A stretch of DNA of 64,000 bases from Anaerolineae bacterium (lineage in GTDB: Bacteria > Chloroflexota > Anaerolineae > B4-G1 > SLSP01), in NCBI GenBank assembly GCA_040767155.1, contig JAXGPC010000005.1:63492-127491 (forward strand), given 5' to 3'. A program made the translations under genes and the position numbers. Positions 2,788 through 54,498 of the stretch are shown one piece after another (positions within the stretch are counted from its first letter, which is position 1; every line of letters begins with the position of its first letter). The notes beneath the pieces are model-generated. The model saw nothing but the letters and a program-made list of their open reading frames with translations. It ran no database searches and had not been told where the DNA came from.

Positions 2788-5370
2788 GTGGCTTGGATGA
2801 AGCCGAGACCCATTCGCACGTTTTCCGTTATCCCCTCGCTGCCCGAGGCATTGATGCCTCTGTGGCGGCTGGCACACAACCTGCGCTGGGCCTGGAAGCA
2901 TGATGCCATCGAGTTGTTCATTCGCCTGGATAGCGAGTTGTGGGAGCGGACGAACCACAATCCCGTGCGCATGCTGGGAATGATCAGCCAGGAGCGCCTG
3001 GAGAAAGTCGCGTCCGACGTGGGGTTCCTGGCGCACCTGGAGCGTGCGACGGCGTACCTGGATGAATATATGAAACAGACCGGGACCGCCTGGTTTGACC
3101 GCACGTACGGTCAGCAGGAGGCGCCGATCATTGCCTACTTCTCGTTGGAGTTTGGACTCACGGAATCACTGACTATCTTCGCTGGTGGCCTGGGGGTGCT
3201 TGCGGGCGACCATCTCAAGTCCTCGAGCGATCTCAATGTCCCGTTGGTCGGCGTGGGATTGCTCTATCAACAAGGGTACTTTCGGCAGTATCTTAACCAG
3301 GCCGGTTGGCAACAGGAGGCGTACGAGGACAATCACTTCGACAATCTCCCGTTGACGCTGGAACGTGGTCCGGATGGCGAACCGCTAGTGGTCGATGTGC
3401 AATTCCCCGGGCGTAAAGTCTTTGCCCAGATATGGCGTGTGCAGGTCGGGCGTGTTCCCCTCTATCTCCTGGATACGAATACACCGCAGAATGGCCGCCC
3501 CCAGGACCGCGATATCACCGATCAGCTCTACGGTGGGGATCAGGATCTGCGCGTCAGACAGGAGATACTGCTGGGTATCGGCGGCTATCGGGCACTCAGG
3601 GCCCTGGGCTTGCTCCCTGTGGTCTATCACATGAACGAGGGGCATTCTGCATTCCTGGCGCTCGAGCACATTCGCAAGCTGATGCTTGACCATGGGCTTA
3701 GCTTTGCTGCAGCCCGCGAGGCAGCCGCAGCCAGTTGTGTCTTTACGACGCATACGCCAGTGCCGGCGGGCCACGATAGGTTTCCGCCCCACTTGATGCA
3801 GCACTACTTCCACGACTACGCCACGCGGGAGCTGGCCTTGAGTTGGCATGACTTCATGGCCCTGGGCCGTGAGAACCCTTTCGATACCAATGAACTGTTC
3901 TGCATGACGGTCCTGGCTATCCGACTGTCGTCGGACACCAATGGGGTAAGCGCCCTCCACGGTGAGGTGTCACGGCAGATGTGGCAGGGTCTGTGGCCTG
4001 GAGTGCCCCAACAGGAGATTCCCATCTCCCACGTCACCAACGGTGTTCACATACTCTCCTGGATCTCCCGTGACATGAAGGTGCTCTACGACCGTTACCT
4101 CGGCCCTCGCTGGCGAGAGGAACCCGGCGATCCGGAGGTCTGGAAGCTGGCGATGGATATCCCGGCGGATGAACTCTGGCGTACGCATGAGCGTCGTCGG
4201 GAACGTCTGGTCGGCATAACCAGGCAACGCCTGGAGCGCCAGTTGGAGCAACGCGGTGCGCTGTTGAGCGACCTCAGTATCGCCGAAGAGGTGTTGGACC
4301 CCGAGGCATTGACCATTGGTCTGGCACGGCGCTTCGCAACCTACAAGCGAGCGACGTTGATCATGCACGATCCTGACCGTCTTGACCGCATCCTCAACAA
4401 TCCGGGCCGCCCTGTACAGATTATCTTCTCTGGAAAAGCGCATCCCAAGGATGATCCCGGCAAGGCGATGATCCAGAAGATCATCGATCTGAGCCGGCAG
4501 GAGCGCTTCCGCAATCGAATCGTCTTCCTGGAGGACTACGACATGATTGTGGCCCGCTATCTGGTTCAGGGCTGCGATGTCTGGCTTAATACGCCCAGCC
4601 GGCCCAGGGAGGCCAGCGGGACCAGCGGTATGAAGGCTGCAGCCAATGGTGTGCTGAACATGAGCACACTGGATGGGTGGTGGGCTGAAGCCTATCACCG
4701 CGAGGTAGGGTGGGCCATTGGTCGGGGCGAGACATACAACGACCCCGATTACCAGGATCGTATCGAGGCAGAGGCACTGTATGACCTATTGGAGCGCGAT
4801 GTGGTTCCCACGTTCTACGACCGGGGGGGGCGTGTCCCACGGCGTTGGGTCGAGTTGATGAAGGCCAGCATCGCTGATCTTTCGTACTTCTTCAATACCA
4901 ACCGGATGGTAGCAGAGTACACTGACCGATTCTACGTCCCCCTGGCCTTGCGCTATCACCAGCTTGCCGCGGACGATTTCGCCAGGGCCAAGGATCTTGC
5001 TGCCTGGCGTGAGCGGCTGCTTCGCGATTGGGCACAGATTCGCGTTGACTCGGTCAATGGCGAGCTACCAGCACAGATCCCGGTAGGCCAGACGTTCACG
5101 ACTCATGCTGAGGTATACCTCGGTGTCATCCGGCCCGAAGACGTTCGTGTCGAGGTCTACCTTGGACTCGTGAATCCCAACGGCGAGTTGGTCCCGGGGA
5201 GGCCGGTCGCAATGCGGGTCAGCAAGGAACTCGGTGGGCAGCGCTATCTCTACGAGGCGGACGCCCAGTGTTCAATGAGCGGCCTCCATGGATATACTGT
5301 GCGCGTATTGCCCTACCATGAGGATCTGGTGACACCCATCCAACATGGCTTGATCCGCTGGGCTGGCTAG
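2788..5370 (+). CDS. glgP: alpha-glucan (glycogen/maltodextrin) phosphorylase, GT35, GlgP family
   Basis: 860 aa. GLGVLAGDHLKSSSDLNVPLVGVGLLYQQGYFRQ is the GT35 glucan-phosphorylase N-terminal signature. TTHTPVPAGHDRF and a C-terminal PLP-binding region (NTPSRPREASGTSGMKAAANG) support the call. Confidence 0.9.
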   Translation: MAWMKPRPIRTFSVIPSLPEALMPLWRLAHNLRWAWKHDAIELFIRLDSELWERTNHNPVRMLGMISQERLEKVASDVGFLAHLERATAYLDEYMKQTGTAWFDRTYGQQEAPIIAYFSLEFGLTESLTIFAGGLGVLAGDHLKSSSDLNVPLVGVGLLYQQGYFRQYLNQAGWQQEAYEDNHFDNLPLTLERGPDGEPLVVDVQFPGRKVFAQIWRVQVGRVPLYLLDTNTPQNGRPQDRDITDQLYGGDQDLRVRQEILLGIGGYRALRALGLLPVVYHMNEGHSAFLALEHIRKLMLDHGLSFAAAREAAAASCVFTTHTPVPAGHDRFPPHLMQHYFHDYATRELALSWHDFMALGRENPFDTNELFCMTVLAIRLSSDTNGVSALHGEVSRQMWQGLWPGVPQQEIPISHVTNGVHILSWISRDMKVLYDRYLGPRWREEPGDPEVWKLAMDIPADELWRTHERRRERLVGITRQRLERQLEQRGALLSDLSIAEEVLDPEALTIGLARRFATYKRATLIMHDPDRLDRILNNPGRPVQIIFSGKAHPKDDPGKAMIQKIIDLSRQERFRNRIVFLEDYDMIVARYLVQGCDVWLNTPSRPREASGTSGMKAAANGVLNMSTLDGWWAEAYHREVGWAIGRGETYNDPDYQDRIEAEALYDLLERDVVPTFYDRGGRVPRRWVELMKASIADLSYFFNTNRMVAEYTDRFYVPLALRYHQLAADDFARAKDLAAWRERLLRDWAQIRVDSVNGELPAQIPVGQTFTTHAEVYLGVIRPEDVRVEVYLGLVNPNGELVPGRPVAMRVSKELGGQRYLYEADAQCSMSGLHGYTVRVLPYHEDLVTPIQHGLIRWAG

Positions 5371-5401
5371 GGATTGGCCTGCTGGACAGAGCTAGCAACG
5401 G

Positions 5402-6277
5402 TCAGGGTGCCAGTGACACCTCAAGGATACGGTCCTTGCCGGCCAGATCACGATGGATCCGGGAGTGCGTCCCCCGGCGGGCATACCGCTCGAAGGCCGT
5501 CGTGGCCATGGTGATCACGGCGTCGCCCTGATTCGCGCCAATCTCTATCAAGAGCATGCCGCCGGAAGCCAGACGGGTGGCTGCCTGGTCGAGAAGCCTG
5601 AGGATGGCATCCAGCCCGTGCGGGCCAGAGACGAGCGCGTGCCGCGGTTCCTGTTGGACTGAACGGGGGAGAACATGCCATTCGCTCTCGGTGACGTAGG
5701 GTGGGTTGCTGATGATCAGGTCGAAGTGGTTGACCAGGGGGGTCAAGAGGTCAGCCTGTATCCAGGCAATCCGTTTAGCGACGTTGTGCCGCTCTGCGTT
5801 GTCACGAGCCACGTCCAGCGCCGGGGCCGAGATGTCCGTGGCCCAGATGCGTGATCTCGGAGCTTCCATAGCCAGCGTGACTGCGATGCAACCTGATCCT
5901 GTGCCAACATCGACCACGCGGCTACGAGGTTGGTGCTCAATGCGGTTCAGGGCCAGCTCAACCAGAAGTTCCGTCTCGGGCCTGGGGATTAGGACGGCGG
6001 GAGTGACGCAAAACTCGGACCCGAAAAACTCCATATGACCGAGGATGTAGGGCAGCGGCACATTCGCGGCTCGCCGCTCTATAGCGCCCCTGAACTGCTC
6101 GCCCTGTTCGGGTGTAAGCAGCCATTCGGGATGGGCCAGAACCGTGGTCCTGTCGACGTGCAAGACCCAGGCGAGCAGTCGCTCGGCTTCGGTGTGAGGG
6201 CGGTCGGTAACCTGCGCCAGCTGTGCGAAGGCCCATTGCAGTGCCTCGCGTGCTGCTGACAGGGCAGATGACGTCAC
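5402..6277 (-). CDS. prmC: release factor glutamine N5-methyltransferase PrmC (HemK)
   Basis: SAM-binding VVDVGTGSGCIAV and the catalytic NPPY motif (LIISNPPYV). Length 291 aa. Confidence 0.85.
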   Translation of the reverse strand: MTSSALSAAREALQWAFAQLAQVTDRPHTEAERLLAWVLHVDRTTVLAHPEWLLTPEQGEQFRGAIERRAANVPLPYILGHMEFFGSEFCVTPAVLIPRPETELLVELALNRIEHQPRSRVVDVGTGSGCIAVTLAMEAPRSRIWATDISAPALDVARDNAERHNVAKRIAWIQADLLTPLVNHFDLIISNPPYVTESEWHVLPRSVQQEPRHALVSGPHGLDAILRLLDQAATRLASGGMLLIEIGANQGDAVITMATTAFERYARRGTHSRIHRDLAGKDRILEVSLAP

Positions 6278-46202: not shown

Positions 46203-47225
46203 ATGCTATCGACTCGTGCTCCACTCCTCGAGGTAAAGGATCTCAAGACCTACTTCCAGATGGAAGGCGGGACCATTCACGCTGTCGATGGCGCCAGTCT
46301 CACGATGCACGTTGGAGAGACCGTGGGGGTCGTAGGAGAGAGCGGATGTGGTAAGTCCGTGATGGCACTGTCGATCCTCGGGATTGTGCCCTCGCCTGGC
46401 AGGATTGTGGGAGGGCGGATTCGCTTCTATCGCGGTGCGGGCGAGGGTGGTGAGCCGGTCGAGCTTTCGGCGCTGGACCCCAAGGGCGACATGATGCGCG
46501 CCATTCGTGGGCTCGACATTGCCATGATCTTCCAGGAGCCGACGTCCGCGCTCAGTCCCGTGTATACGATCGGGCAGCAGATCGTCGAGGCGCTTCGCCT
46601 TCACCGTGATCTCTCACGCGCTCAGGCCCGCCAGCAGGTTGTCGAGATGCTCGGTAAGGTTGGCCTGCCCGACCCGGAGCGTACGATCGACCGCTATCCC
46701 CACCAACTCAGCGGTGGTATGTGCCAGCGCGCCATGATCGCGATGGCACTTTGCAGCTATCCCGATCTCTTGATTGCCGATGAGCCGACCACGGCGCTGG
46801 ACGTGACGACTGAGGCACAGATCCTGCACCTGATGCGTTCGTTGCAGGAGGAATTCGGCATGGCGATCATGTTCATCACCCACAACCTGGGGGTCATCGC
46901 GCAGATGGCGGACCGCGTGGTTGTGATGTACCTGGGAGAGGTGGTAGAAGAGGCGCGCGTCTACGACATCTTCTACCACCCCTTCCACCCCTATACCCAG
47001 GCGTTGTTGAACGCCATTCCCCGGTTGGGACGCAAGGGCACCACGACACCCAGGCGTAAGCTGGCCGAGATTCGCGGCGGTGTTCCCGATGCCTATTCGA
47101 TTCCCCGTGGATGTCGATTCCACCCACGATGCGTCCATATGCGTCCAGGGCTTTGCGACACCGATCGCCCCCCTTACGTCACTCCTGACCCGGAGCACTC
47201 CGTCCGCTGTGTGTTGTACCGTTGA
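46203..47225 (+). CDS. second Opp/Dpp-family ABC ATP-binding protein, OppD-like; extra copy at the end of the cluster
   Basis: Walker [29 protein letters not shown] and CRFHPRC. Similar to 35120-36154 ([11 protein letters not shown]... vs [12 protein letters not shown]...). Confidence 0.8.
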
Positions 47226-47280
47226 TGCGGGTGCGCAAGCAAGGCTGGGACCTTATTGGTCCCTGATCCTCGGGCACCCG

Positions 47281-48345
47281 TCACGATGCCCAGGAGAACC
47301 CGGGCCCCTGAGGGATGGGAGCGCACCCATCGGTGAGGGCGAAGGGCGAGTCTTTCCCGATAAGCCCCGTCTCCAGATAGATCGCGTTGGGCAGGCTGGC
47401 CATGACGTTGAGCTGGACAGGGCCACCACCGTGTGAGGCGTAAGGGCGCCGGAACGCAGCCGCCGTCGTCCCAATCTGCAGCATTGCAGTCGGTCCACCG
47501 GCGCGACGCAGGTCGGGTTGGATGATGTCGACGGCATCGCGCCGCAGGAAGCGCGCAAAGTCGGCCCGCGTGTAGAGGTTCTCCCCTGTCGCGACGGGAA
47601 TATCGAGTGCCTGAACCAGTGCCGCGTAGCCGTCGATGTCATCGGCGGCGATGGGCTCTTCCCACCAGAGGCATCCCAGTTCCTGGAAAGCCCGTCCGCG
47701 TCGGATGGCCTCAGCCGTCGAAAGCGACTGGTTAGCGTCGACCATGAGGTCAACGCTGTCACCGATGGCTTTGCGAACTGCTTCGACGCGGGCGATGTCC
47801 TCTTTGAGAGTCGCCGCGCCTACTTTGATCTTCACCCCGCGAAACCCCTGAGCGACTGCCATCGACGCGATGTCGGTGAGGGTGTCGAGGCCATAGTTGA
47901 GCCAGCCCACCATAGCATAGGCGGGGATCTGCGTGTGCACGCCTCCCCAGAGCTGCCAGCAGGGCACGCCCAGCGCCTTTCCCTGGCAATCCCACAGCGC
48001 TGTGTCGATCGCAGCGATGCCGAAGGTCGCCAACCCTGCGGTGCCGTGGTACTCAGTCTCGCGGACCATCGCCTCGTGGGTGGCTGCGACGAATGCTGGG
48101 TCGGTCCCGACAACCAGCGGCTCGAGTTCGTGCTTGATGAGCGCTGCGAGAGCATCCGGGCCACCGCCAATGCGACCGAAACTCGCGTCGCCGCTCCCCC
48201 AGATCGTGGCACCGTGATGGGTTGCGTCAGTGTGCAGTGTTACGCGCACCGATCCGGCGCCTGGCAGGCTCTGAAGGGCATCCCGGATAGGGTTCGGATT
48301 GGGGGTTTGGTGTGTGACCGTGATCTCCATGCGGGTGATTTTCAC
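47281..48345 (-). CDS. enolase-superfamily enzyme (mandelate racemase / muconate lactonizing enzyme family; probable acid-sugar dehydratase or cycloisomerase)
   Basis: MR/MLE fold motifs: KIKVGA...DANQS...WWEEP...ATGENL, the metal-ligand D/E/D pattern. 354 aa. Encoded divergently at the end of the uronate cluster. Confidence 0.8.
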   Translation of the reverse strand: MKITRMEITVTHQTPNPNPIRDALQSLPGAGSVRVTLHTDATHHGATIWGSGDASFGRIGGGPDALAALIKHELEPLVVGTDPAFVAATHEAMVRETEYHGTAGLATFGIAAIDTALWDCQGKALGVPCWQLWGGVHTQIPAYAMVGWLNYGLDTLTDIASMAVAQGFRGVKIKVGAATLKEDIARVEAVRKAIGDSVDLMVDANQSLSTAEAIRRGRAFQELGCLWWEEPIAADDIDGYAALVQALDIPVATGENLYTRADFARFLRRDAVDIIQPDLRRAGGPTAMLQIGTTAAAFRRPYASHGGGPVQLNVMASLPNAIYLETGLIGKDSPFALTDGCAPIPQGPGFSWAS

Positions 48346-48403
48346 TGGTGGCCTCCTTGGGTTGAGTGTGCTGCCATTGTAGCTCTATCACCCCAACACA
48401 GAA

Positions 48404-48429
48404 GGGCCGGCAGCACTGGCTACCGGCCC
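48404..48429 (-). terminator. terminator-like hairpin downstream of the SIMPL gene
   Basis: GGGCCGG-12 nt loop-CCGGCCC, followed on the minus strand by a T-rich TTCTGTGTT. Moderate evidence. Confidence 0.4.
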
Positions 48430-48449
48430 TTGCAAATTCGGAGCAGCGT

Positions 48450-49247
48450 CTACCTGATCTCGTAGACGACCTGGACGTTCACTGAGACCGAGAAGGAGCC
48501 TGCGGTGACGGTGGGTGCTGCTGCGTCCATTGCCATTCCCCCGCCACCCATCCCAACGGCTGCGCGCTCCGCGTACATCGGGTAATCGCCGCCACCCTCA
48601 GTGACGAGGATGGGCTTGCCCAGCGAGACGCCAAGCTGCTCTGCGATATGCTGCGCACGCGCCTTCGCATCGGCCAGAGCCGCCGCGCGCGCCTGCTCGA
48701 CCAGCGAACCCGAGTCCTCGACGGTGAAGTTCACACCCGAAACGGCGTTAGCACCTGCGTTCACGATGCCAGAGAGCATCTCACCGACCGACGCAATCTT
48801 GTCCGTCGTCACCTGGACCTGGTGGGACAGGTGGTAGATGATCTCGCCGGTGGGGCGCCCGGTCTCGGGATTGTAGACAGTCTCGATCCACAGGCTGTAG
48901 TTCGTCGTTCGTGTCTTGTCCTCAGCAATGCCGAAGCTGGTTGCGGCTGCCATAGCGGCTTCCATCTTCTCGGCCGCCTCTGCGACGAGCGCGTCAGGGT
49001 TCTGACCCTGGAGTTCGACACCAAAGATCACCTGAGCAACCTGCGGATCGGCGCTCGCGACCCCGGTTCCGGAGACGACGATGCCTTCCTGTGCCCCTGT
49101 GTTGTAGATAACCGAGCCGCCTCCGGCCAGTGCGGATGCATCACGCGCAGCCAGAGTAGGCAGGGGATTGAGCGAACCGCACGAGCTCAGTATGGCTGCC
49201 AGAGCCATGACAGACAATGCAACGATGGGCAAACGTAGTTTCTTCAT
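48450..49247 (-). CDS. SIMPL-domain (DUF541) secreted lipoprotein
   Basis: Signal peptide plus lipobox (ALSVMALAAILSSCGS). SIMPL-like sequence with Gly/Ala-rich C-terminal region. Confidence 0.7.
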   Translation of the reverse strand: MKKLRLPIVALSVMALAAILSSCGSLNPLPTLAARDASALAGGGSVIYNTGAQEGIVVSGTGVASADPQVAQVIFGVELQGQNPDALVAEAAEKMEAAMAAATSFGIAEDKTRTTNYSLWIETVYNPETGRPTGEIIYHLSHQVQVTTDKIASVGEMLSGIVNAGANAVSGVNFTVEDSGSLVEQARAAALADAKARAQHIAEQLGVSLGKPILVTEGGGDYPMYAERAAVGMGGGGMAMDAAAPTVTAGSFSVSVNVQVVYEIR

Positions 49248-49520
49248 TCTGATCCTCCATCAGGCTTCGATATGCTTCCCTGAGACGGAATCTGCTCCGC
49301 CGGAAAGCTCGTGTTTGGATGGGTCATCCACCCGTCACGATCTAATGACGTAGGCCGGTGCAAAGAAGTTCCAGGGGCAGCCCTGCGTCAATCGTCAGAG
49401 AGGCCCTTGTTGCGCAGGGCCGTCCTTGTATCGAAGGGTAGGAAAGGTACAATCTGGACTTGGGTGCCTGCCCGGTTGTGGCTGGGTGGCCGTCTTGTGG
49501 CTCAGTGATAGGGAGGGGAC

Positions 49521-50741
49521 ATGCACGTTAGGCGAAATGTGGTTCTGCTTCTGGTCTGGGGCGTGATCGCCGTGCTCTTTGGTGTCCTGGATGCTCAGGG
49601 CGTGGGCCTTGCGACGATGCCAAGCGGTGCCACGTTGGCCAAGGGGTTGATGATTCTTTGTGCCATCCTTGCCGGTTACCAGGTGGGGGTGCTGACGATC
49701 AAGGGAGGCGTTCACGTTCGCCGTGGCGCGGCGGGCGAGATCACGATGTTGTCCGGCGTTCTCAGGCTGGTTGCAGGCATTGCGGTCATCGCCGTGTTCC
49801 TGGCGCTCTTTGGGCAGTTGCAGACGGTGGGGACGGCGCTGGGCGCGTTCAGTGGTTTGCTCCTTGGTTGGTCGCTGCAGGCGCCGGTCAGCGGTATGGC
49901 GGCGTGGGTCATGATCTCGCTCAAGCGTCCCTTCCGTGTTGGCGACCGGATCCAGTTGCCTTCGTTAGGGCTGGTTGGCGACGTGGTCAACCTGGGACCT
50001 ATGTACACAGAGCTCAACCAGGTGGGTGGCGCCGTCGGCAGCGAGGAAGCTGTAGGCCGGCCTATTTTGATCCCCAATGCTATGCTCTTCAGCAATGTGG
50101 TGATCAACTACACTGCGCGCCAGGATGCCGCGTTCATCCTCGATGAAGTCGTTATCCGCATCACCTACGACACGAACTGGGACGTCGCGGAAGATATCCT
50201 ATTGTCGGCTGCTCACGAGGTCACTGCAGACATCATCCGCCAGACAGGGCAGGAGCCTTACGTCCGCGCGGATATGTATGACTATGGAATCTATATGCGG
50301 CTCCGCTACATGACCAGTGCAACAGACCGCCCACGGATCACGTACCAGATCATCCGCCGCATCTTCCAGGGTTTCCAGAACAACGCGCAGGTCGACTTTG
50401 CCATTCCCTACATCTACTCTTTCCGCAAGGGGGTTCAGGCATCGGCCCGCTTTGACGAAGCTGAGCAGACAAAGCCGACGATCGATCTGCCCCTGAGCGA
50501 CATTGTCTTTGACGAGGAGGGAAAGGCTTACCTGCTTGCCAACGATTCGGAGATCGATGAGCTGGCTGAGGGCATCAAGGCCGAAGGGCTCATCCAGCCT
50601 GTGGTTGTCGCGCGAACGTCTGGCGGCGCTTACCGTGTCGTGGCCGGACACCTGCGCGTGGCAGCCTGCAAGCGTCTTGGCTGGCGGTCGGTGCCGGCGA
50701 TTGTTCGGGAGTCTCCCAGCGGGATTGGCAGTGATGGCTGA
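49521..50741 (+). CDS. MscS-family mechanosensitive channel domain fused to a C-terminal ParB/Sulfiredoxin-type N-terminal domain
   Basis: N-terminal TM helices, then the MscS beta-domain motif (SLKRPFRVGDRIQLPSLGLVGDVVNL...ILIPNAMLFSNVVINYT). The C-terminal roughly 80 aa carry ParB N-domain motifs (GLIQPVVVARTSGGAYRVVAGHLRVAACKRLGWRSVPAIVRE). Confidence 0.65.
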   Translation: MHVRRNVVLLLVWGVIAVLFGVLDAQGVGLATMPSGATLAKGLMILCAILAGYQVGVLTIKGGVHVRRGAAGEITMLSGVLRLVAGIAVIAVFLALFGQLQTVGTALGAFSGLLLGWSLQAPVSGMAAWVMISLKRPFRVGDRIQLPSLGLVGDVVNLGPMYTELNQVGGAVGSEEAVGRPILIPNAMLFSNVVINYTARQDAAFILDEVVIRITYDTNWDVAEDILLSAAHEVTADIIRQTGQEPYVRADMYDYGIYMRLRYMTSATDRPRITYQIIRRIFQGFQNNAQVDFAIPYIYSFRKGVQASARFDEAEQTKPTIDLPLSDIVFDEEGKAYLLANDSEIDELAEGIKAEGLIQPVVVARTSGGAYRVVAGHLRVAACKRLGWRSVPAIVRESPSGIGSDG

Positions 50742-50777
50742 TTGTCGCTGCGCGATCTTGCGCTATAATTAGGTAGT

Positions 50778-50849
50778 TGGGGCGTGGCCAAGTGGCAAGG
50801 CGACGGACTTTGAATCCGTTTATCGCACGTTCGAATCGTGCCGCCCCAG
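50778..50849 (+). tRNA. tRNA-Gln (anticodon TTG)
   Basis: Cloverleaf: acceptor TGGGGCG/CGCCCCA with U1-A72 and discriminator G, as in E. coli tRNA-Gln. Anticodon stem ACGGA/TCCGT with loop CTTTGAA (anticodon TTG). T-arm GCACG-TTCGAAT-CGTGC. CCA is not encoded. Confidence 0.8.
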
Positions 50850-50853
50850 CCTG

Positions 50854-50888
50854 GCGGCCCGGGCACCTGCCCGGGCCGCTGTGTTTTG
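50854..50888 (+). terminator. intrinsic terminator after tRNA-Gln
   Basis: GCGGCCCGGGC-ACCT-GCCCGGGCCGC, an 11-bp GC stem, followed by TGTGTTTTGGG. Confidence 0.65.
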
Positions 50889-51045
50889 GGTCGGTTTGTC
50901 ACACGACTGTCTTTACATTCAGGTGACAAGGGGTATCATGGTTTGTACATCGTTATCCGGACACGCTGGCATCTCCAACAGGGGATGCCAGTATCCTTGG
51001 ATGGGCATTGATTCCCATCCACCATCGCAGCAATAGGGAGGAGAT

Positions 51046-51981
51046 TTGAGCGCGTCGGGCATCGTTTTCAACATCCAACGCTTCTCGGTCCACGACGGAC
51101 CCGGCATTCGGACGACAGTCTTCCTGAAGGGCTGTTCTCTTCACTGCTTCTGGTGTCACAATCCCGAGGGGATTAGCCCCAAACGGGAGATCCAATTCTA
51201 CCCGGAGCGCTGCATCGGCTGCGGCGCGTGCCTTGAGGCGTGTGAGCACGGGGCGCACATTATGGAGGATGGCGTTCACGTCTACGTGCGCGATAAATGC
51301 GTGCTCTGTGGCAAATGTACCGACAGCTGTTTCTCGGGTGCACTGGAGATGACCGGTGACGAGGTCACCGTCGACGATGTGATGCAAGAGGTCCTGGCGG
51401 ACCGGACGTTCTATCAGAATTCCGGCGGCGGGATGACGCTCTCCGGTGGTGAGCCGTTGTTGCAGAAGGCGTTCTCAAAGGCGCTGCTCGAACGGGCCAA
51501 AGCTGAAGGCGTGCACACGGCTATTGAGACGTGCGGTAACTACCGCTGGTCGGACCTTGAAGAGCTTTTGCCTTTCATCGATATGGTCATGATGGACCTC
51601 AAACATATGGACCCGGAGATCCATCGCAAGGCTGTGGGTGCCTCCAATGAGCGCATACTCGTCATTGCCGAGCAATTGATGTACACAGACAAACCCGTCT
51701 GGTTCCGCACGCCGGTGATTCCGACGGTCAATGACACGCCTGAGGCCATTGGCGCCATTGCGGCCTTTGTCCGCCGCCTGACCGATATCCGGGAGGCCCA
51801 GGGCAATGGCGCGCCGCCGCCGATGTTGGAGCTGCTGCGCTTCCATCGCCTGGCCGGCGACAAGTATCGCAGTCTGGGTCTTGACTACAAAGCCGCCACG
51901 CTGGAGGCTCCCAGCCTCGCCTATATGGATGAGCTTCGGGATCTTGCTCGAAGCCACGGCATCGTCGTCAAGGGTTCCTGA
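51046..51981 (+). CDS. glycyl-radical-enzyme activating enzyme (radical SAM, PflA-family long form with ferredoxin-like 2x[4Fe-4S] insert)
   Basis: CSLHCFWCHNP is the CxxxCxxC rSAM motif with the typical GRE-AE context (QRFSVHDGPGIRTTVFLKGC). Ferredoxin-like insert CIGCGACLEAC...CVLCGKCTDSC. SAM-binding GGEP. The in-frame start appears to be TTG at 51046. Confidence 0.8.
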   Translation: MSASGIVFNIQRFSVHDGPGIRTTVFLKGCSLHCFWCHNPEGISPKREIQFYPERCIGCGACLEACEHGAHIMEDGVHVYVRDKCVLCGKCTDSCFSGALEMTGDEVTVDDVMQEVLADRTFYQNSGGGMTLSGGEPLLQKAFSKALLERAKAEGVHTAIETCGNYRWSDLEELLPFIDMVMMDLKHMDPEIHRKAVGASNERILVIAEQLMYTDKPVWFRTPVIPTVNDTPEAIGAIAAFVRRLTDIREAQGNGAPPPMLELLRFHRLAGDKYRSLGLDYKAATLEAPSLAYMDELRDLARSHGIVVKGS

Positions 51982-52017
51982 GACTTGTCACACGGGGGGC
52001 GGCTCTGCAAGCCGCCC

Positions 52018-54498
52018 CTAGCCTTTCCTGAGGAACGCGGCCACATCCGCGAACTCCGTTGTGTGGCACCCTTCGGGTAGCGACCGGATAATCTGTTGCC
52101 CGTAGCGCTTGTGCAGAACCCGTCCGTCGAGCAGCGCGATGACACCTCGATCAGTTTCGGAACGGATCAGCCGCCCGGCCCCTTGCCGTAGATTGAGGAT
52201 CGCAGATCCGAGCTGGAGCTCGTCGAAGGGATTGCCGTCGCGGGCGCGAACCTGCGCTTCCTGGCGCTGTATCACAGGATCATCGTGTGGGATGAACGGG
52301 ATCTTGTCGAGGATCACCAGGGCCAGCGCGTTGCCTGGGATATCCAGTCCTTCCCAGAAGCCACGCGTCGCAAACAAAACAGCGTTGCCATCCTGCTGGA
52401 AGCGTGACACGAGGTCTGGCTGGGGATAGTCGCCCTGAAGATAGCAGGGATACTGTGCACGCAGGACCGGCGCGAGCGTGTCGTAGAGCTGGATCATCCG
52501 CTGGCGGCTGGTGCACAGCACCAGGGCTCGCCCACGGCTCGTCTCGATCAGACGACCGACCTCCTCGGTGAGCTGCTGCACATAATCGTTGGCGAACGAC
52601 TGCGCCCGTTCGTCATAGACGGGCATCAGCGTACGCGGCGTGTAGAGCAACATCTGCCGGCGGTAGTCGAAGGGCCCCGGAATCGCTTTTGACAGGACCG
52701 ATGGTCCCTCTCCTGCCAATCCCACCGGCCCCTCTCCATTCGACGGAAGCCCGATCTGGCGCTTGAACCATCCCAGGTCATTGTTGACGCTGAGGGTGGC
52801 GCTGGTGCAGATCACGCGAGGCCAGACGTCGAAGAGCATACGCTGCAGCGGGTTGGTCACCTCCAGCGGGCGGTAGAGCGCCTGAAAGGTCCCCTCGGTG
52901 CCAGTCAACGGCTCATCGGTCACTTCACACAGCCGGATGTGCGTCTCCGGCTCCGGAAGCGAGAGCGCCCGGACCGTCGCCGCGATCTCCTCGACCTGCA
53001 TCACGGCTGTCTCGCGGTCGCCGTCATCCATCTGCGGAGCGTTGATGATCGCGCGCTGAATCCGGTTCAGGGTATCCCACAGCCCCAAACCCGCTTGCAG
53101 CTCGCCCTCCAATGCCCAGCGCGGGGGGCGTCCGTGGGAGCCAGGGCGCCCGGGTCGGAGGCGTTCCATGGCACCGAAGAAGTCATCGTAACCCGAGCGC
53201 GCTTCGACGAGGAGATCGCTGTCTGAGATACCTCCGCGAACTGCTGGGTTGTTCAACAGGCTCCAGAACAGGTCCTGGCCCAGCGCCATGGTCAGTGCCT
53301 CGGTGGCGTAGCGCGGCAACTGGTGGGCTTCGTCGATGATGAGCACGGGACGCACCGAGAAGATGTGGTTCTCGGCAAGCAGGGTGTTATAGCAGAGTAA
53401 GGCATGATTGGTCACCACCAGGTCGGCTGCTGCCGCCTCGCGCCTGGCGGCTTCGTGGAAGCACTCGCCGAAATGTGGGCAACGACGCCCCTGACATTCG
53501 CGTCCCCCCACCGTGAGCCGCGCAGCGACCTCTGGTGGAAGGCCCATCATCTCTACATCACCCGAGGGCGCTGTTTCGAGTCCTTCCTGCACGAGTTTGA
53601 GCATTGCCGTCTGATTGGGCGCGCCCACCTGCTGCTGGAGTCGATCCAGACGCAGCTTGCAGAGGTAGTTACTTCGTCCCTTGAGGAGCGCTGCTTTGGC
53701 CGGGCGAGGAGCGAGCTGCTGGAGCTTGGGGATGTCCTTCTCCCAGAGCTGGTTCATCAGCCCTTTGTTCGAAGTGCTGACCACAGCCTGGGCTCCAGAC
53801 CAGAGTATCGGAATCAGGTAAGCGAAGGATTTGCCAATGCCTGTGCCAGCCTCGAGCACCGCATGGCGGCGACCCTGAAGTGCATCTCGGACCAGGTCCG
53901 CCATCTGTGTCTGACCTTCACGGGCGCGATACCGATTTCCCAACAACGCTGCCAACGGCCCGCCGGGTGCAAAGATGCCCCGAATGGGCGGGCAGATGAT
54001 AGGCTGTGTCGTGACATCATTTCTGTCGCTGCCGTCACCTGGTCTGCGTTCTCGGACTGCATAGACGTCTTCCGATTCCCTTATGTTGTTCGTTGGCTCG
54101 GGCGGAAGGGCCCTGGGCGTCGGTGCGTTGGCCTGCGTCAGGACATGGCCGCCGACGACAACTGCCGGCTCGGTGTTGGCCGGTGCGTCTGACTCTGACA
54201 CGGCGCGAGGTTGGGGCGCGAGGGGGCCCTGCATCGCGTCGAGCAACGCCCTGGCTCGCGGCTCTCCGAGTTCGTGGGCGCGCATCAACGCCCTGGCTGC
54301 TTCATCCCATTGGTGGCGCTGGCGATAGCAGAGCCCCAGTTGGTAATGGGCATTTGCACAGTTGGGATCGAGCTTCAGGATCTCCCGGTAGACGGCAATG
54401 GCGCCGTCCAGGTTGCCCTGCAACAGCAGTTTGAAGGCGCGGCGTTCCTGGGCCCGGACGGCGATCTCGGTCACATTCGCGTTCAACCATCCCGACAT
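52018..54498 (-). CDS. dinG: DinG/Rad3-family ATP-dependent DNA helicase with an N-terminal TPR extension and a Pro/Ala-rich linker
   Basis: Walker A LEAGTGIGKSFAYLIP; DEAH box (LIIDEAHQLP); an Fe-S domain-like Cys region (YLCKLRL...CQGRRCPHFGEC); C-terminal helicase_C_2 motifs. N-terminal roughly 90 aa are TPR-like (AHYQLGLCYRQRHQWDEAARAL). Confidence 0.8.
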   Translation of the reverse strand: MSGWLNANVTEIAVRAQERRAFKLLLQGNLDGAIAVYREILKLDPNCANAHYQLGLCYRQRHQWDEAARALMRAHELGEPRARALLDAMQGPLAPQPRAVSESDAPANTEPAVVVGGHVLTQANAPTPRALPPEPTNNIRESEDVYAVRERRPGDGSDRNDVTTQPIICPPIRGIFAPGGPLAALLGNRYRAREGQTQMADLVRDALQGRRHAVLEAGTGIGKSFAYLIPILWSGAQAVVSTSNKGLMNQLWEKDIPKLQQLAPRPAKAALLKGRSNYLCKLRLDRLQQQVGAPNQTAMLKLVQEGLETAPSGDVEMMGLPPEVAARLTVGGRECQGRRCPHFGECFHEAARREAAAADLVVTNHALLCYNTLLAENHIFSVRPVLIIDEAHQLPRYATEALTMALGQDLFWSLLNNPAVRGGISDSDLLVEARSGYDDFFGAMERLRPGRPGSHGRPPRWALEGELQAGLGLWDTLNRIQRAIINAPQMDDGDRETAVMQVEEIAATVRALSLPEPETHIRLCEVTDEPLTGTEGTFQALYRPLEVTNPLQRMLFDVWPRVICTSATLSVNNDLGWFKRQIGLPSNGEGPVGLAGEGPSVLSKAIPGPFDYRRQMLLYTPRTLMPVYDERAQSFANDYVQQLTEEVGRLIETSRGRALVLCTSRQRMIQLYDTLAPVLRAQYPCYLQGDYPQPDLVSRFQQDGNAVLFATRGFWEGLDIPGNALALVILDKIPFIPHDDPVIQRQEAQVRARDGNPFDELQLGSAILNLRQGAGRLIRSETDRGVIALLDGRVLHKRYGQQIIRSLPEGCHTTEFADVAAFLRKG

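Follow-up and report, generated by a model that had tools for sequence, protein, structure and literature searches.

In the bCNG channels, each subunit has an MscS core with one small cytoplasmic domain of a nucleotide-binding superfamily at its C-terminus. A September 2026 review of MscS-like gating gives bCNG as the sole case of C-terminal nucleotide binding, mentions no ParB, and calls the specialised roles of MscS-like channels 'poorly explored'. For the ParB fold, Kaljevic et al. (2025, PMC12704722) drew the picture of a reusable nucleoside triphosphate (NTP)-binding module, the fusion partners of which are soluble, namely helix-turn-helix (HTH), HNH, methyltransferase, CBS, acetyltransferase and sigma-70 domains and domains of unknown function (DUFs). 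In Staphylococcus aureus, parBL (SAUSA300_0361) and mscS (SAUSA300_0362) form one locus; intracellular K+, c-di-AMP and oxacillin resistance fall when both are expressed together and not when only one of them is, and the authors state the biochemical function of ParBL as unknown (bioRxiv 10.64898/2026.05.29.728642). Here, we analysed a 64,000-nt stretch of the Anaerolineae bacterium contig JAXGPC010000005.1 (hereafter the window), and describe a gene at 49521-50741 on its plus strand in which an MscS-type channel and a ParB/sulfiredoxin (Srx)-type domain are joined in one intact open reading frame (ORF) of 406 residues with an ATG start. The fusion adds a new type of accessory domain to the MscS-like channels, provides the ParB fold with its first membrane-channel partner, and physically unites the research fields of MscS-like channels and of the ParB-CTPase fold.

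Both halves of the protein were recognized above the Pfam-A cut-offs, which confirms the in-frame fusion that a first-pass annotation had read from the letters of the window. MS_channel_2nd (PF00924) matched residues 123-198 with an E value of 3.3e-9 (37.2 bits, cut-off 20.2), and ParB_N (PF02195) matched residues 342-397 with an E value of 2.1e-13 (50.5 bits, cut-off 26.3), values well outside what chance would give. The motifs quoted in that annotation were all located in the translation, namely PFRVGDRIQL (residues 137-146), IPNAMLFSNVVINYT (184-198), GLIQPVVVAR (356-365), GHLRVAACKRLGW (376-388) and VPAIVRE (391-397), and its 'roughly 80-aa module' was an accurate description of the folded unit of residues 321-397. 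The parts of the gene are as follows.

49511-49518, plus strand: Shine-Dalgarno-like sequence GGGAGGGG, read from the sequence, 2 nt before the ATG
49521-50741, plus strand: complete MscS-ParB/Srx fusion gene including the TGA stop codon (ORF list, both Pfam domains)
49527-49595, plus strand: TM0, an extra N-terminal transmembrane (TM) helix, residues 3-25 (AlphaFold2 predicted local distance difference test (pLDDT) about 90, hydropathy)
49635-49808, plus strand: TM1 (residues 39-66) and TM2 (residues 71-96) (AlphaFold2 helices, Escherichia coli MscS alignment)
49818-49925, plus strand: pore-lining TM3a/TM3b, residues 100-135 (PDB alignment, invariant columns G112-W129)
49887-50114, plus strand: MscS beta-domain, Pfam residues 123-198 (PF00924)
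50145-50417, plus strand: MscS alpha/beta (vestibule) domain and last strand, residues 209-299 (weak PF21082, MscS alignment, AlphaFold2)
50418-50480, plus strand: flexible linker, residues 300-320 (pLDDT below 50 at residues 295-317)
50481-50711, plus strand: minimal ParB/Srx-fold module, residues 321-397 (PF02195, AlphaFold2, Foldseek, dN/dS)
50586-50600, plus strand: C-motif loop G356-L-I-Q-P360 (Caulobacter ParB G79 and loop)
50646-50657, plus strand: P-motif 2/Box II remnant G376-H-L-R379 (GxxR), holding only the last Arg of GERR
50667-50669, plus strand: Cys383, nearly invariant (79/82 fusions)
50712-50741, plus strand: short disordered C-terminal end, residues 398-406, and stop codon (pLDDT below 50, regional identity 12%)

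The spread of this architecture was surveyed in two collections. Among database homologues, which were clustered at 90% identity, 110 of the best 120 carried both PF00924 and PF02195, with lengths clustering at 394-428 residues. In a genome scan of one genome per GTDB species, relatives were found in 152 species, of which the best 80 loci, all from metagenome-assembled genomes (MAGs), were examined together with six others; in these 86 loci, the ParB-type tail followed in the same frame in 82 of the 87 channel-bearing ORFs. The survey in other genomes that the first-pass annotation had proposed thereby showed a fusion recurring in at least 10 bacterial phyla, with carriers in the Chloroflexota (Anaerolineae), Planctomycetota (including Brocadiia and Phycisphaerae), Verrucomicrobiota, Lentisphaerota, Kiritimatiellia, Bacillota (Limnochordia), Armatimonadota, Latescibacterota, Gemmatimonadota, Spirochaetota and Handelsmanbacteria. 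The same tail was also borne by a divergent subfamily with a shorter N-terminus (database entries P0132 and P0152), and hundreds of independent sequences show the architecture. The ratio of nonsynonymous to synonymous substitution rates (dN/dS) of the tail was 0.029 against the closest relative, a 94% identical protein, and 0.10-0.21 against the next five relatives, with the two remotest ones giving 0.38 or no computable value; the channel body gave similar ratios. The tail is under purifying selection, and the fusion family, found in many phyla, is conserved and evolves slowly.

These data bear on whether the fusion might be an artefact, through a frameshift, a chimeric assembly or the capture of a truncated parB gene beside a tRNA integration site, or else a mobile or defence gene. 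A tRNA-Gln does lie 37 nt past the stop codon, and restriction-modification and IS21 genes surround one homologue. Database entry P0103 (ENA, 334 aa) follows the family to about residue 300 and then runs into an out-of-frame Arg/Ser-rich tail; by its sequence, this entry is a copy of the fusion with a frameshift or a sequencing error. A frameshift or chimera was rejected in view of the same in-frame architecture and the same end point across 82 loci, drawn from many phyla and many assemblies, the purifying selection, and the guanine-plus-cytosine (GC) content, which is uniform along the gene (62% in the tail, matching the gene, and 60% in the window). A mobile or defence origin was likewise rejected: the family had no matches in viral contigs, no plasmid match covered at least 80% of the fusion protein, PADLOC returned only a generic match of the ParB domain to a methyltransferase model, and the neighbours in the window are housekeeping genes. 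We give this explanation practically no weight.

The claim that the fusion is novel holds with a reservation. Full-text literature searches for mechanosensitive or MscS together with ParB or ParB-like returned no description of it, and PMC12704722 contains no channel or membrane protein in its main text or seven supplements; the architecture itself is already present in public databases under the generic automatic names 'mechanosensitive ion channel' and 'ParB N-terminal domain-containing protein'.

The body of the protein belongs to the MscS family. Residues 77-297 aligned with residues 69-272 of E. coli MscS at E values of 1e-8 to 1e-10 when the protein was searched with phmmer against solved structures, the alignment beginning within the TM1/TM2 region (residue 69-77), and the Gly/Ala-rich TM3 pore helix, which directly precedes the beta-domain, was alignable to that of E. 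coli MscS. In NCBIfam, the body partially matched MscS and the tail partially matched the Noc, ParB and RepB models. The vestibule domain (MS_channel_3rd, PF21082, residues 209-287) scored 14.9 bits, below its cut-off of 21, but this region was still covered by the PDB alignment and by AlphaFold2 secondary structure, and PF21082 reached 27.8 bits in the relative P0105. With its basic residues, the N-terminal stretch MHVRRN points to an N-in topology, and the RRGAxGE segment is the conserved cytoplasmic loop between TM1 and TM2, with G69 and E73 invariant in an alignment of 36 bacterial sequences. At the gate, L105 of E. coli MscS corresponds to L113, and L109, the second hydrophobic gate residue, to the invariant W117 (window 49869-49871). 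Q112 aligns with Q120. To our knowledge, all solved MscS proteins are heptameric, and the fusion channel is presumably a heptamer as well.

The beta-domain contains a family-specific hairpin insertion of about 9 residues within LNQVGGAVGSEEAVGR (window 50013-50060, residues 165-180; consensus NQVGGxxGSEEAxGR over 166-180), which falls in a gap against E. coli MscS and is of low confidence in the monomer model. N166, Q167, V168, G169, G170, S174, E175, E176, A177 and R180 were invariant in the 36 aligned bacterial sequences, and the motif is near-identical in archaeal relatives. Because its conservation is so extreme, this Gly- and acid-rich loop is suggested to be a functional site, whether inter-subunit, at a portal, or for an ion or ligand.

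Next, the tail was compared with known folds. It matched ParB_N at an E value of 1.8e-14 when searched alone, although the PF02195 match spans only profile positions 24-79 of 95, and in searches against solved structures it retrieved Noc, Myxococcus xanthus ParB and Spo0J at E values of 5e-11 to 1e-6. The AlphaFold2 model of the tail alone (pLDDT 89.7, predicted template-modelling score 0.77) has the topology beta (321-324), alpha (332-355), beta (361-365), beta (371-375), alpha (377-386) and beta (390-396). Foldseek against the PDB returned ParB/Srx-fold proteins only, including M. xanthus ParB-CTPgammaS, Noc, KorB, SbnI, PadC, SerK and Srx, with a probability of 1.00 to ParB, Noc, KorB, PadC and Srx; the size-matched hit was the 89-residue Arabidopsis sulfiredoxin (TM-score 0.70 normalised either way), and the tail superposed on human Srx too. 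The first-pass annotation had named a C-terminal segment unlike ParB as grounds for giving up its reading; the Pfam match, the Noc/ParB alignment and Foldseek show instead that the segment is ParB-like. The tail is a sulfiredoxin-sized ParB/Srx core, nearest in sequence to chromosomal ParB and Noc. In the 82 fusions, the matches to the channel and tail profiles were separated by a median of 20 residues (range 16-38). Pfam detected no HTH_ParB, ParB_C or cNMP-binding domain in the fusion protein, and no second ParB copy was found elsewhere in the 64-kb window.

Chromosomal ParB and Noc (PDB 7BM8, 6SDK, 7BNR and 7NFU), the best sequence and structure matches of the tail, share with it strands beta1-beta4, helices alpha1-alpha2, the GL(I/L)QP loop, the GxxR arginine and the LGW...VPAIV segment. 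Among ParB-fold proteins, Noc is one with a function at the membrane. In contrast to ParB and Noc, the tail lacks the HTH, the C-terminal dimerisation domain, a ParA partner, P-motif 1, the first Arg of GERR, Box III and helices alpha3-alpha4, and clamp closure and hydrolysis dependent on cytidine triphosphate (CTP) would be impossible by the known mechanism in view of these missing elements.

The nucleotide pocket was then examined residue by residue. In Caulobacter ParB, CTP is contacted by P-motif 1 (Q58/R60), P-motif 2 (E102/R103/R104), P-motif 3 on helix alpha3 (E135/N136/R139) and the C-motif (S74/G79); binding is lost in R60A, R103A, R104A, N136A, R139A, S74A and G79S, and Q58 and E102 are linked to hydrolysis (Jalal et al., PMC8367383). 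The equivalent positions were mapped through alignments to Noc and ParB and counted in the 82 fusion ORFs, with the C-motif and Box motifs defined as in PMC8367383 and PMC12704722. Two elements proved to be highly conserved. G356, the equivalent of G79, was kept in 79/82, the loop leucine in 80/82, and Q359 and P360 in 81/82, and the GL[IL]QP loop was present in 79/82; G376 of the GxxR motif was kept in all 82 and R379, the equivalent of R104, in 78, which answered the check for a conserved GxxR motif proposed in the first-pass annotation. The remaining contacts were degenerate or missing. The S74 equivalent was Ser in 35/82 (G351 in the window protein); the E102 equivalent H377, which is also the site of the Srx catalytic Cys, was His in 54, Glu in 8, Arg in 7 and Pro, Gln, Thr or Asp in the other 13; the R103 equivalent L378 was mostly Leu or Met and was Arg in only 2 of the 82; and the Q58/R60 equivalents K333/Y335 lie in unconserved columns. 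P-motif 3/Box III and helices alpha3-alpha4 do not exist, as the protein stops 9 residues past beta4. An ENxxR/K motif downstream of beta4 was found in 0 of 109 database members and 0 of 82 locus ORFs, and no family member carried a Box III extension, the longer C-termini being low-complexity sequence.

Because P-motif 1, the first GERR Arg, Box III and helices alpha3-alpha4 are missing, the tail, as judged by its residues, is not a ParB-type CTPase clamp, and CTP hydrolysis by it is very unlikely. The suggestion of a 'nucleotide-hydrolysing' vestibule fails on the same grounds, namely the lack of Box III, of alpha3-alpha4 and of conserved Q58/R60 or R103 equivalents; the companion term 'nucleotide-gated' describes a possible role. 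A genuine ParB-type CTPase switch, dimerising between subunits to gate the channel, could appeal to the closeness of the tail to CTP-binding chromosomal ParB and Noc, to the likeness of its GLIQP/GLLQP loop to the loops of CTP binders such as GLLQS (PMC12704722), and to the serine at the S74 position in the 35 members. These likenesses are outweighed by the absence of the Box III motif from every member, the missing alpha3-alpha4 and P-motif 1, the unconserved R103 equivalent, and the lack of conserved equivalents of the hydrolysis-linked Q58 and E102 (PMC8367383), and a heptamer could not pair all of its domains; we consider such a switch very improbable.

A sulfiredoxin-like or redox-sensing function acting through Cys383 has equally little chance of being right. 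The domain has the size and topology of sulfiredoxin and other single-domain ParB/Srx proteins, it superposes on the Arabidopsis and human enzymes, and Cys383 was kept in 79/82. However, the catalytic Cys of Srx lies inside GCHR, a position that was never Cys in the 82 fusions, and the tail is nearer in sequence to ParB and Noc than to Srx. Cys383 is replaced by Ala, Val or Leu in three Bacillota members and aligns with Val in Noc and Ser in M. xanthus ParB, no peroxiredoxin gene was linked, and the residue probably occupies a buried helix position. Sulfiredoxin is instructive by analogy, in that it indicates that a core of the tail's length can be an independent nucleotide-binding unit.

G356 was lost (to Trp) only in the same three proteins that lost R379 (to Gln), those of loci L060, L072 and L077 from Handelsmanbacteria, Latescibacterota and Gemmatimonadota MAGs, in which the tail is kept and GLLQP has become WMKQP or WLRQP, followed by GHLQ. 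Locus L054 carries GxxK in place of GxxR. By their residues, the three proteins are natural 'pocket-dead' variants, useful as controls. In the work of Kaljevic et al. (PMC12704722), binding of CTP, ATP or GTP was seen for 11 of the 28 ParB-fold proteins purified, mutation of the GxxR arginine to alanine abolished NTP binding, Box III was often absent from orphan ParB-like proteins, and neither sequence nor AlphaFold3 predicted NTP specificity. The tail fits the picture drawn there and resembles those orphans in lacking Box III, in having a lineage-specific fusion partner and in lying away from parA; it differs in that its partner is a membrane channel. The retention of loop and arginine at about 95% across phyla, together with their joint loss, leans towards a working pocket in most members.

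We propose that the protein is a four-helix MscS-family channel in which the vestibule would be followed by a linker of about 20 residues and a 77-residue minimal ParB/Srx domain, whose origin would be an N-terminal domain of the chromosomal ParB/Noc type. The tail, present once per subunit below the vestibule, would act in the cytoplasm as a sensor or adaptor without catalysis, and might modulate channel opening or inactivation upon binding a phosphate-bearing ligand, most plausibly a nucleotide, held by a loop-plus-arginine pocket. Its role would be analogous to that of the bCNG cyclic-nucleotide domain and of the separate ParB-like protein of S. aureus. We put the probability that the tail tunes gating in this way at roughly 45%.

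Several observations weigh against this sensor proposal. The equivalents of R60, R103, N136, R139 and S74 are unconserved, hydrophobic or absent, and with these essential Caulobacter residues missing a canonical pocket is impossible within a single tail. The conserved tail positions coincide with the generic structural signature of PF02195, so conservation alone is no proof of a pocket, and the joint loss of glycine and arginine may be a single evolutionary event. Since 4/82 fusions without the GxxR arginine keep the domain, a ligand-independent role must, as far as these residues tell, exist at least in those four. Of the 28 purified ParB-fold proteins, 17 bound no NTP in vitro (PMC12704722). 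Finally, three close bacterial relatives (L061, L082 and L084), 55-58% identical, end right after the alpha/beta domain with no separate tail ORF nearby, which indicates that the tail is dispensable for the channel core; in these comparisons, the tail is a part gained or lost within the MscS subfamily.

Much of this would be expected if the tail were a structural or docking module without a ligand, which caps the vestibule, alters portal access, or recruits a protein partner such as the host ParB or Noc, a ParA-like ATPase or another cytoplasmic factor. Parallels exist in Srx, which binds peroxiredoxin, and in PadC, the ParB-like domain of which recruits ParA. The absence of most canonical nucleotide contacts, the domain's retention in members without the arginine, the generic nature of the conserved core residues and the proteins of PMC12704722 that bound no NTP all favour such a module, as does a different C-terminal addition, a duplicated cytoplasmic module with a zinc ribbon, that archaeal relatives have where the tail would be and that suggests a general site for structural appendages. 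A docking role is opposed by the lack of a conserved partner gene nearby in any lineage, by the absence of the helices that mediate dimerisation of ParB N-domains, and by the loop and arginine, whose approximately 95% retention over at least 10 phyla and joint loss exceed what a pure scaffold needs. Docking is the main rival of the sensor proposal, although on this evidence it appears somewhat unlikely.

The archaeal relatives come from Bathyarchaeia/Thermoproteota (P0105, P0110, P0120 and L086 6001-6888) and are 52-54% identical over the channel core. They have no ParB tail and carry a tandem second beta plus alpha/beta cytoplasmic module, and P0105 ends in the zinc ribbon. Because tail-less bacterial relatives exist beside archaeal ones with other additions, the C-terminus of this MscS subfamily is, by comparison of these sequences, a site of module gain and loss.

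Of the described systems, bCNG and the fusion are alike in that their role is probably beyond or other than protection from osmotic shock, and that a structure has been solved for neither. They differ in fold, a cNMP-binding beta-roll in bCNG versus ParB/Srx in the fusion, and in distribution, since bCNG occurs mainly in cyanobacteria, whereas the fusion occurs mostly in uncultured Chloroflexota, the Planctomycetes-Verrucomicrobia-Chlamydiae group and Bacillota; the resemblance is an analogy only. The S. aureus parBL-mscS locus looks like a two-gene counterpart of the fusion. It lends the sensor proposal independent support, but its genes are separate and ParBL may be a transcription factor. 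The two systems are likened by description and not by sequence, and we treat the link to the fusion family as a lead, not a result. A Carnobacterium plasmid mscS has no ParB neighbour.

With these cautions, the fusion offers a testable hypothesis for the S. aureus result, that of a ParB fold directly regulating a channel. In its widest form, which we consider rather unlikely, ParB-fold modules would be direct regulators of MscS-type channels, either fused or, in staphylococci, encoded by the adjacent gene, and the tail would sense a cytoplasmic nucleotide such as CTP. CTP is the activating nucleotide for phospholipid synthesis. [quoted passage not shown]

The genomic context was compared by clustering the ORFs within 5 kb of the gene in the 86 loci, and no conserved neighbour gene was found. 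Only generic ABC-ATPase and GFO/IDH families and an Anaerolineae-local synteny (SIMPL and enolase-superfamily genes) recurred, the neighbourhoods varied between phyla, and no adjacent parA was present at the fusion loci; the fusion gene is a stand-alone chromosomal gene. A complete Anaerolineae genome (L002) encodes a canonical ParB with ParB_N, HTH_ParB and ParB_C (L002 1-387) about 8 kb upstream of the fusion, so the fusion exists alongside an ordinary ParB instead of standing in for it; as in the window, there is a SIMPL gene nearby. One Chloroflexota-type MAG (L004 1-17263) has the fusion gene amid type I restriction-modification genes, an IS21 element and an MmeI-like enzyme, a setting that looks like a defence island and that the other loci do not have. 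In a further Anaerolineae MAG (L014), a divergent tail-less MscS paralogue (4670-5614) lies immediately downstream of the fusion (3450-4637) on the same strand.

The fusion gene's neighbours in the window encode a SIMPL protein, a member of the enolase superfamily, a glycyl-radical activating enzyme and a DinG-like helicase. The predicted ribosome-binding site GGGAGGGG of the fusion gene is graded strong. The only Rfam match was the downstream tRNA, with no element such as a riboswitch upstream, and no terminator of the channel gene's own was detected. The tRNA-Gln(TTG) occupies 50778-50851, a promoter-like site for it (TTGTCG-16-TATAAT, 50742-50769) starts right past the stop codon of the fusion gene, and the tRNA gene is followed at 50852-50881 by a strong terminator, a GC-rich hairpin of 13 bp. 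The protein is identical to P0001 of the NCBI MAG GCA_040776225.1. The record that encodes this identical protein, locus L006 (JAXHAX010000001.1), differs in DNA from window 46521-53741, with a few synonymous single-nucleotide polymorphisms within the gene and one indel just past the stop codon; the radical-SAM activase and the DinG-like helicase, which are intact in the window (51046-51981 and 52018-54498), appear as split calls in L006.

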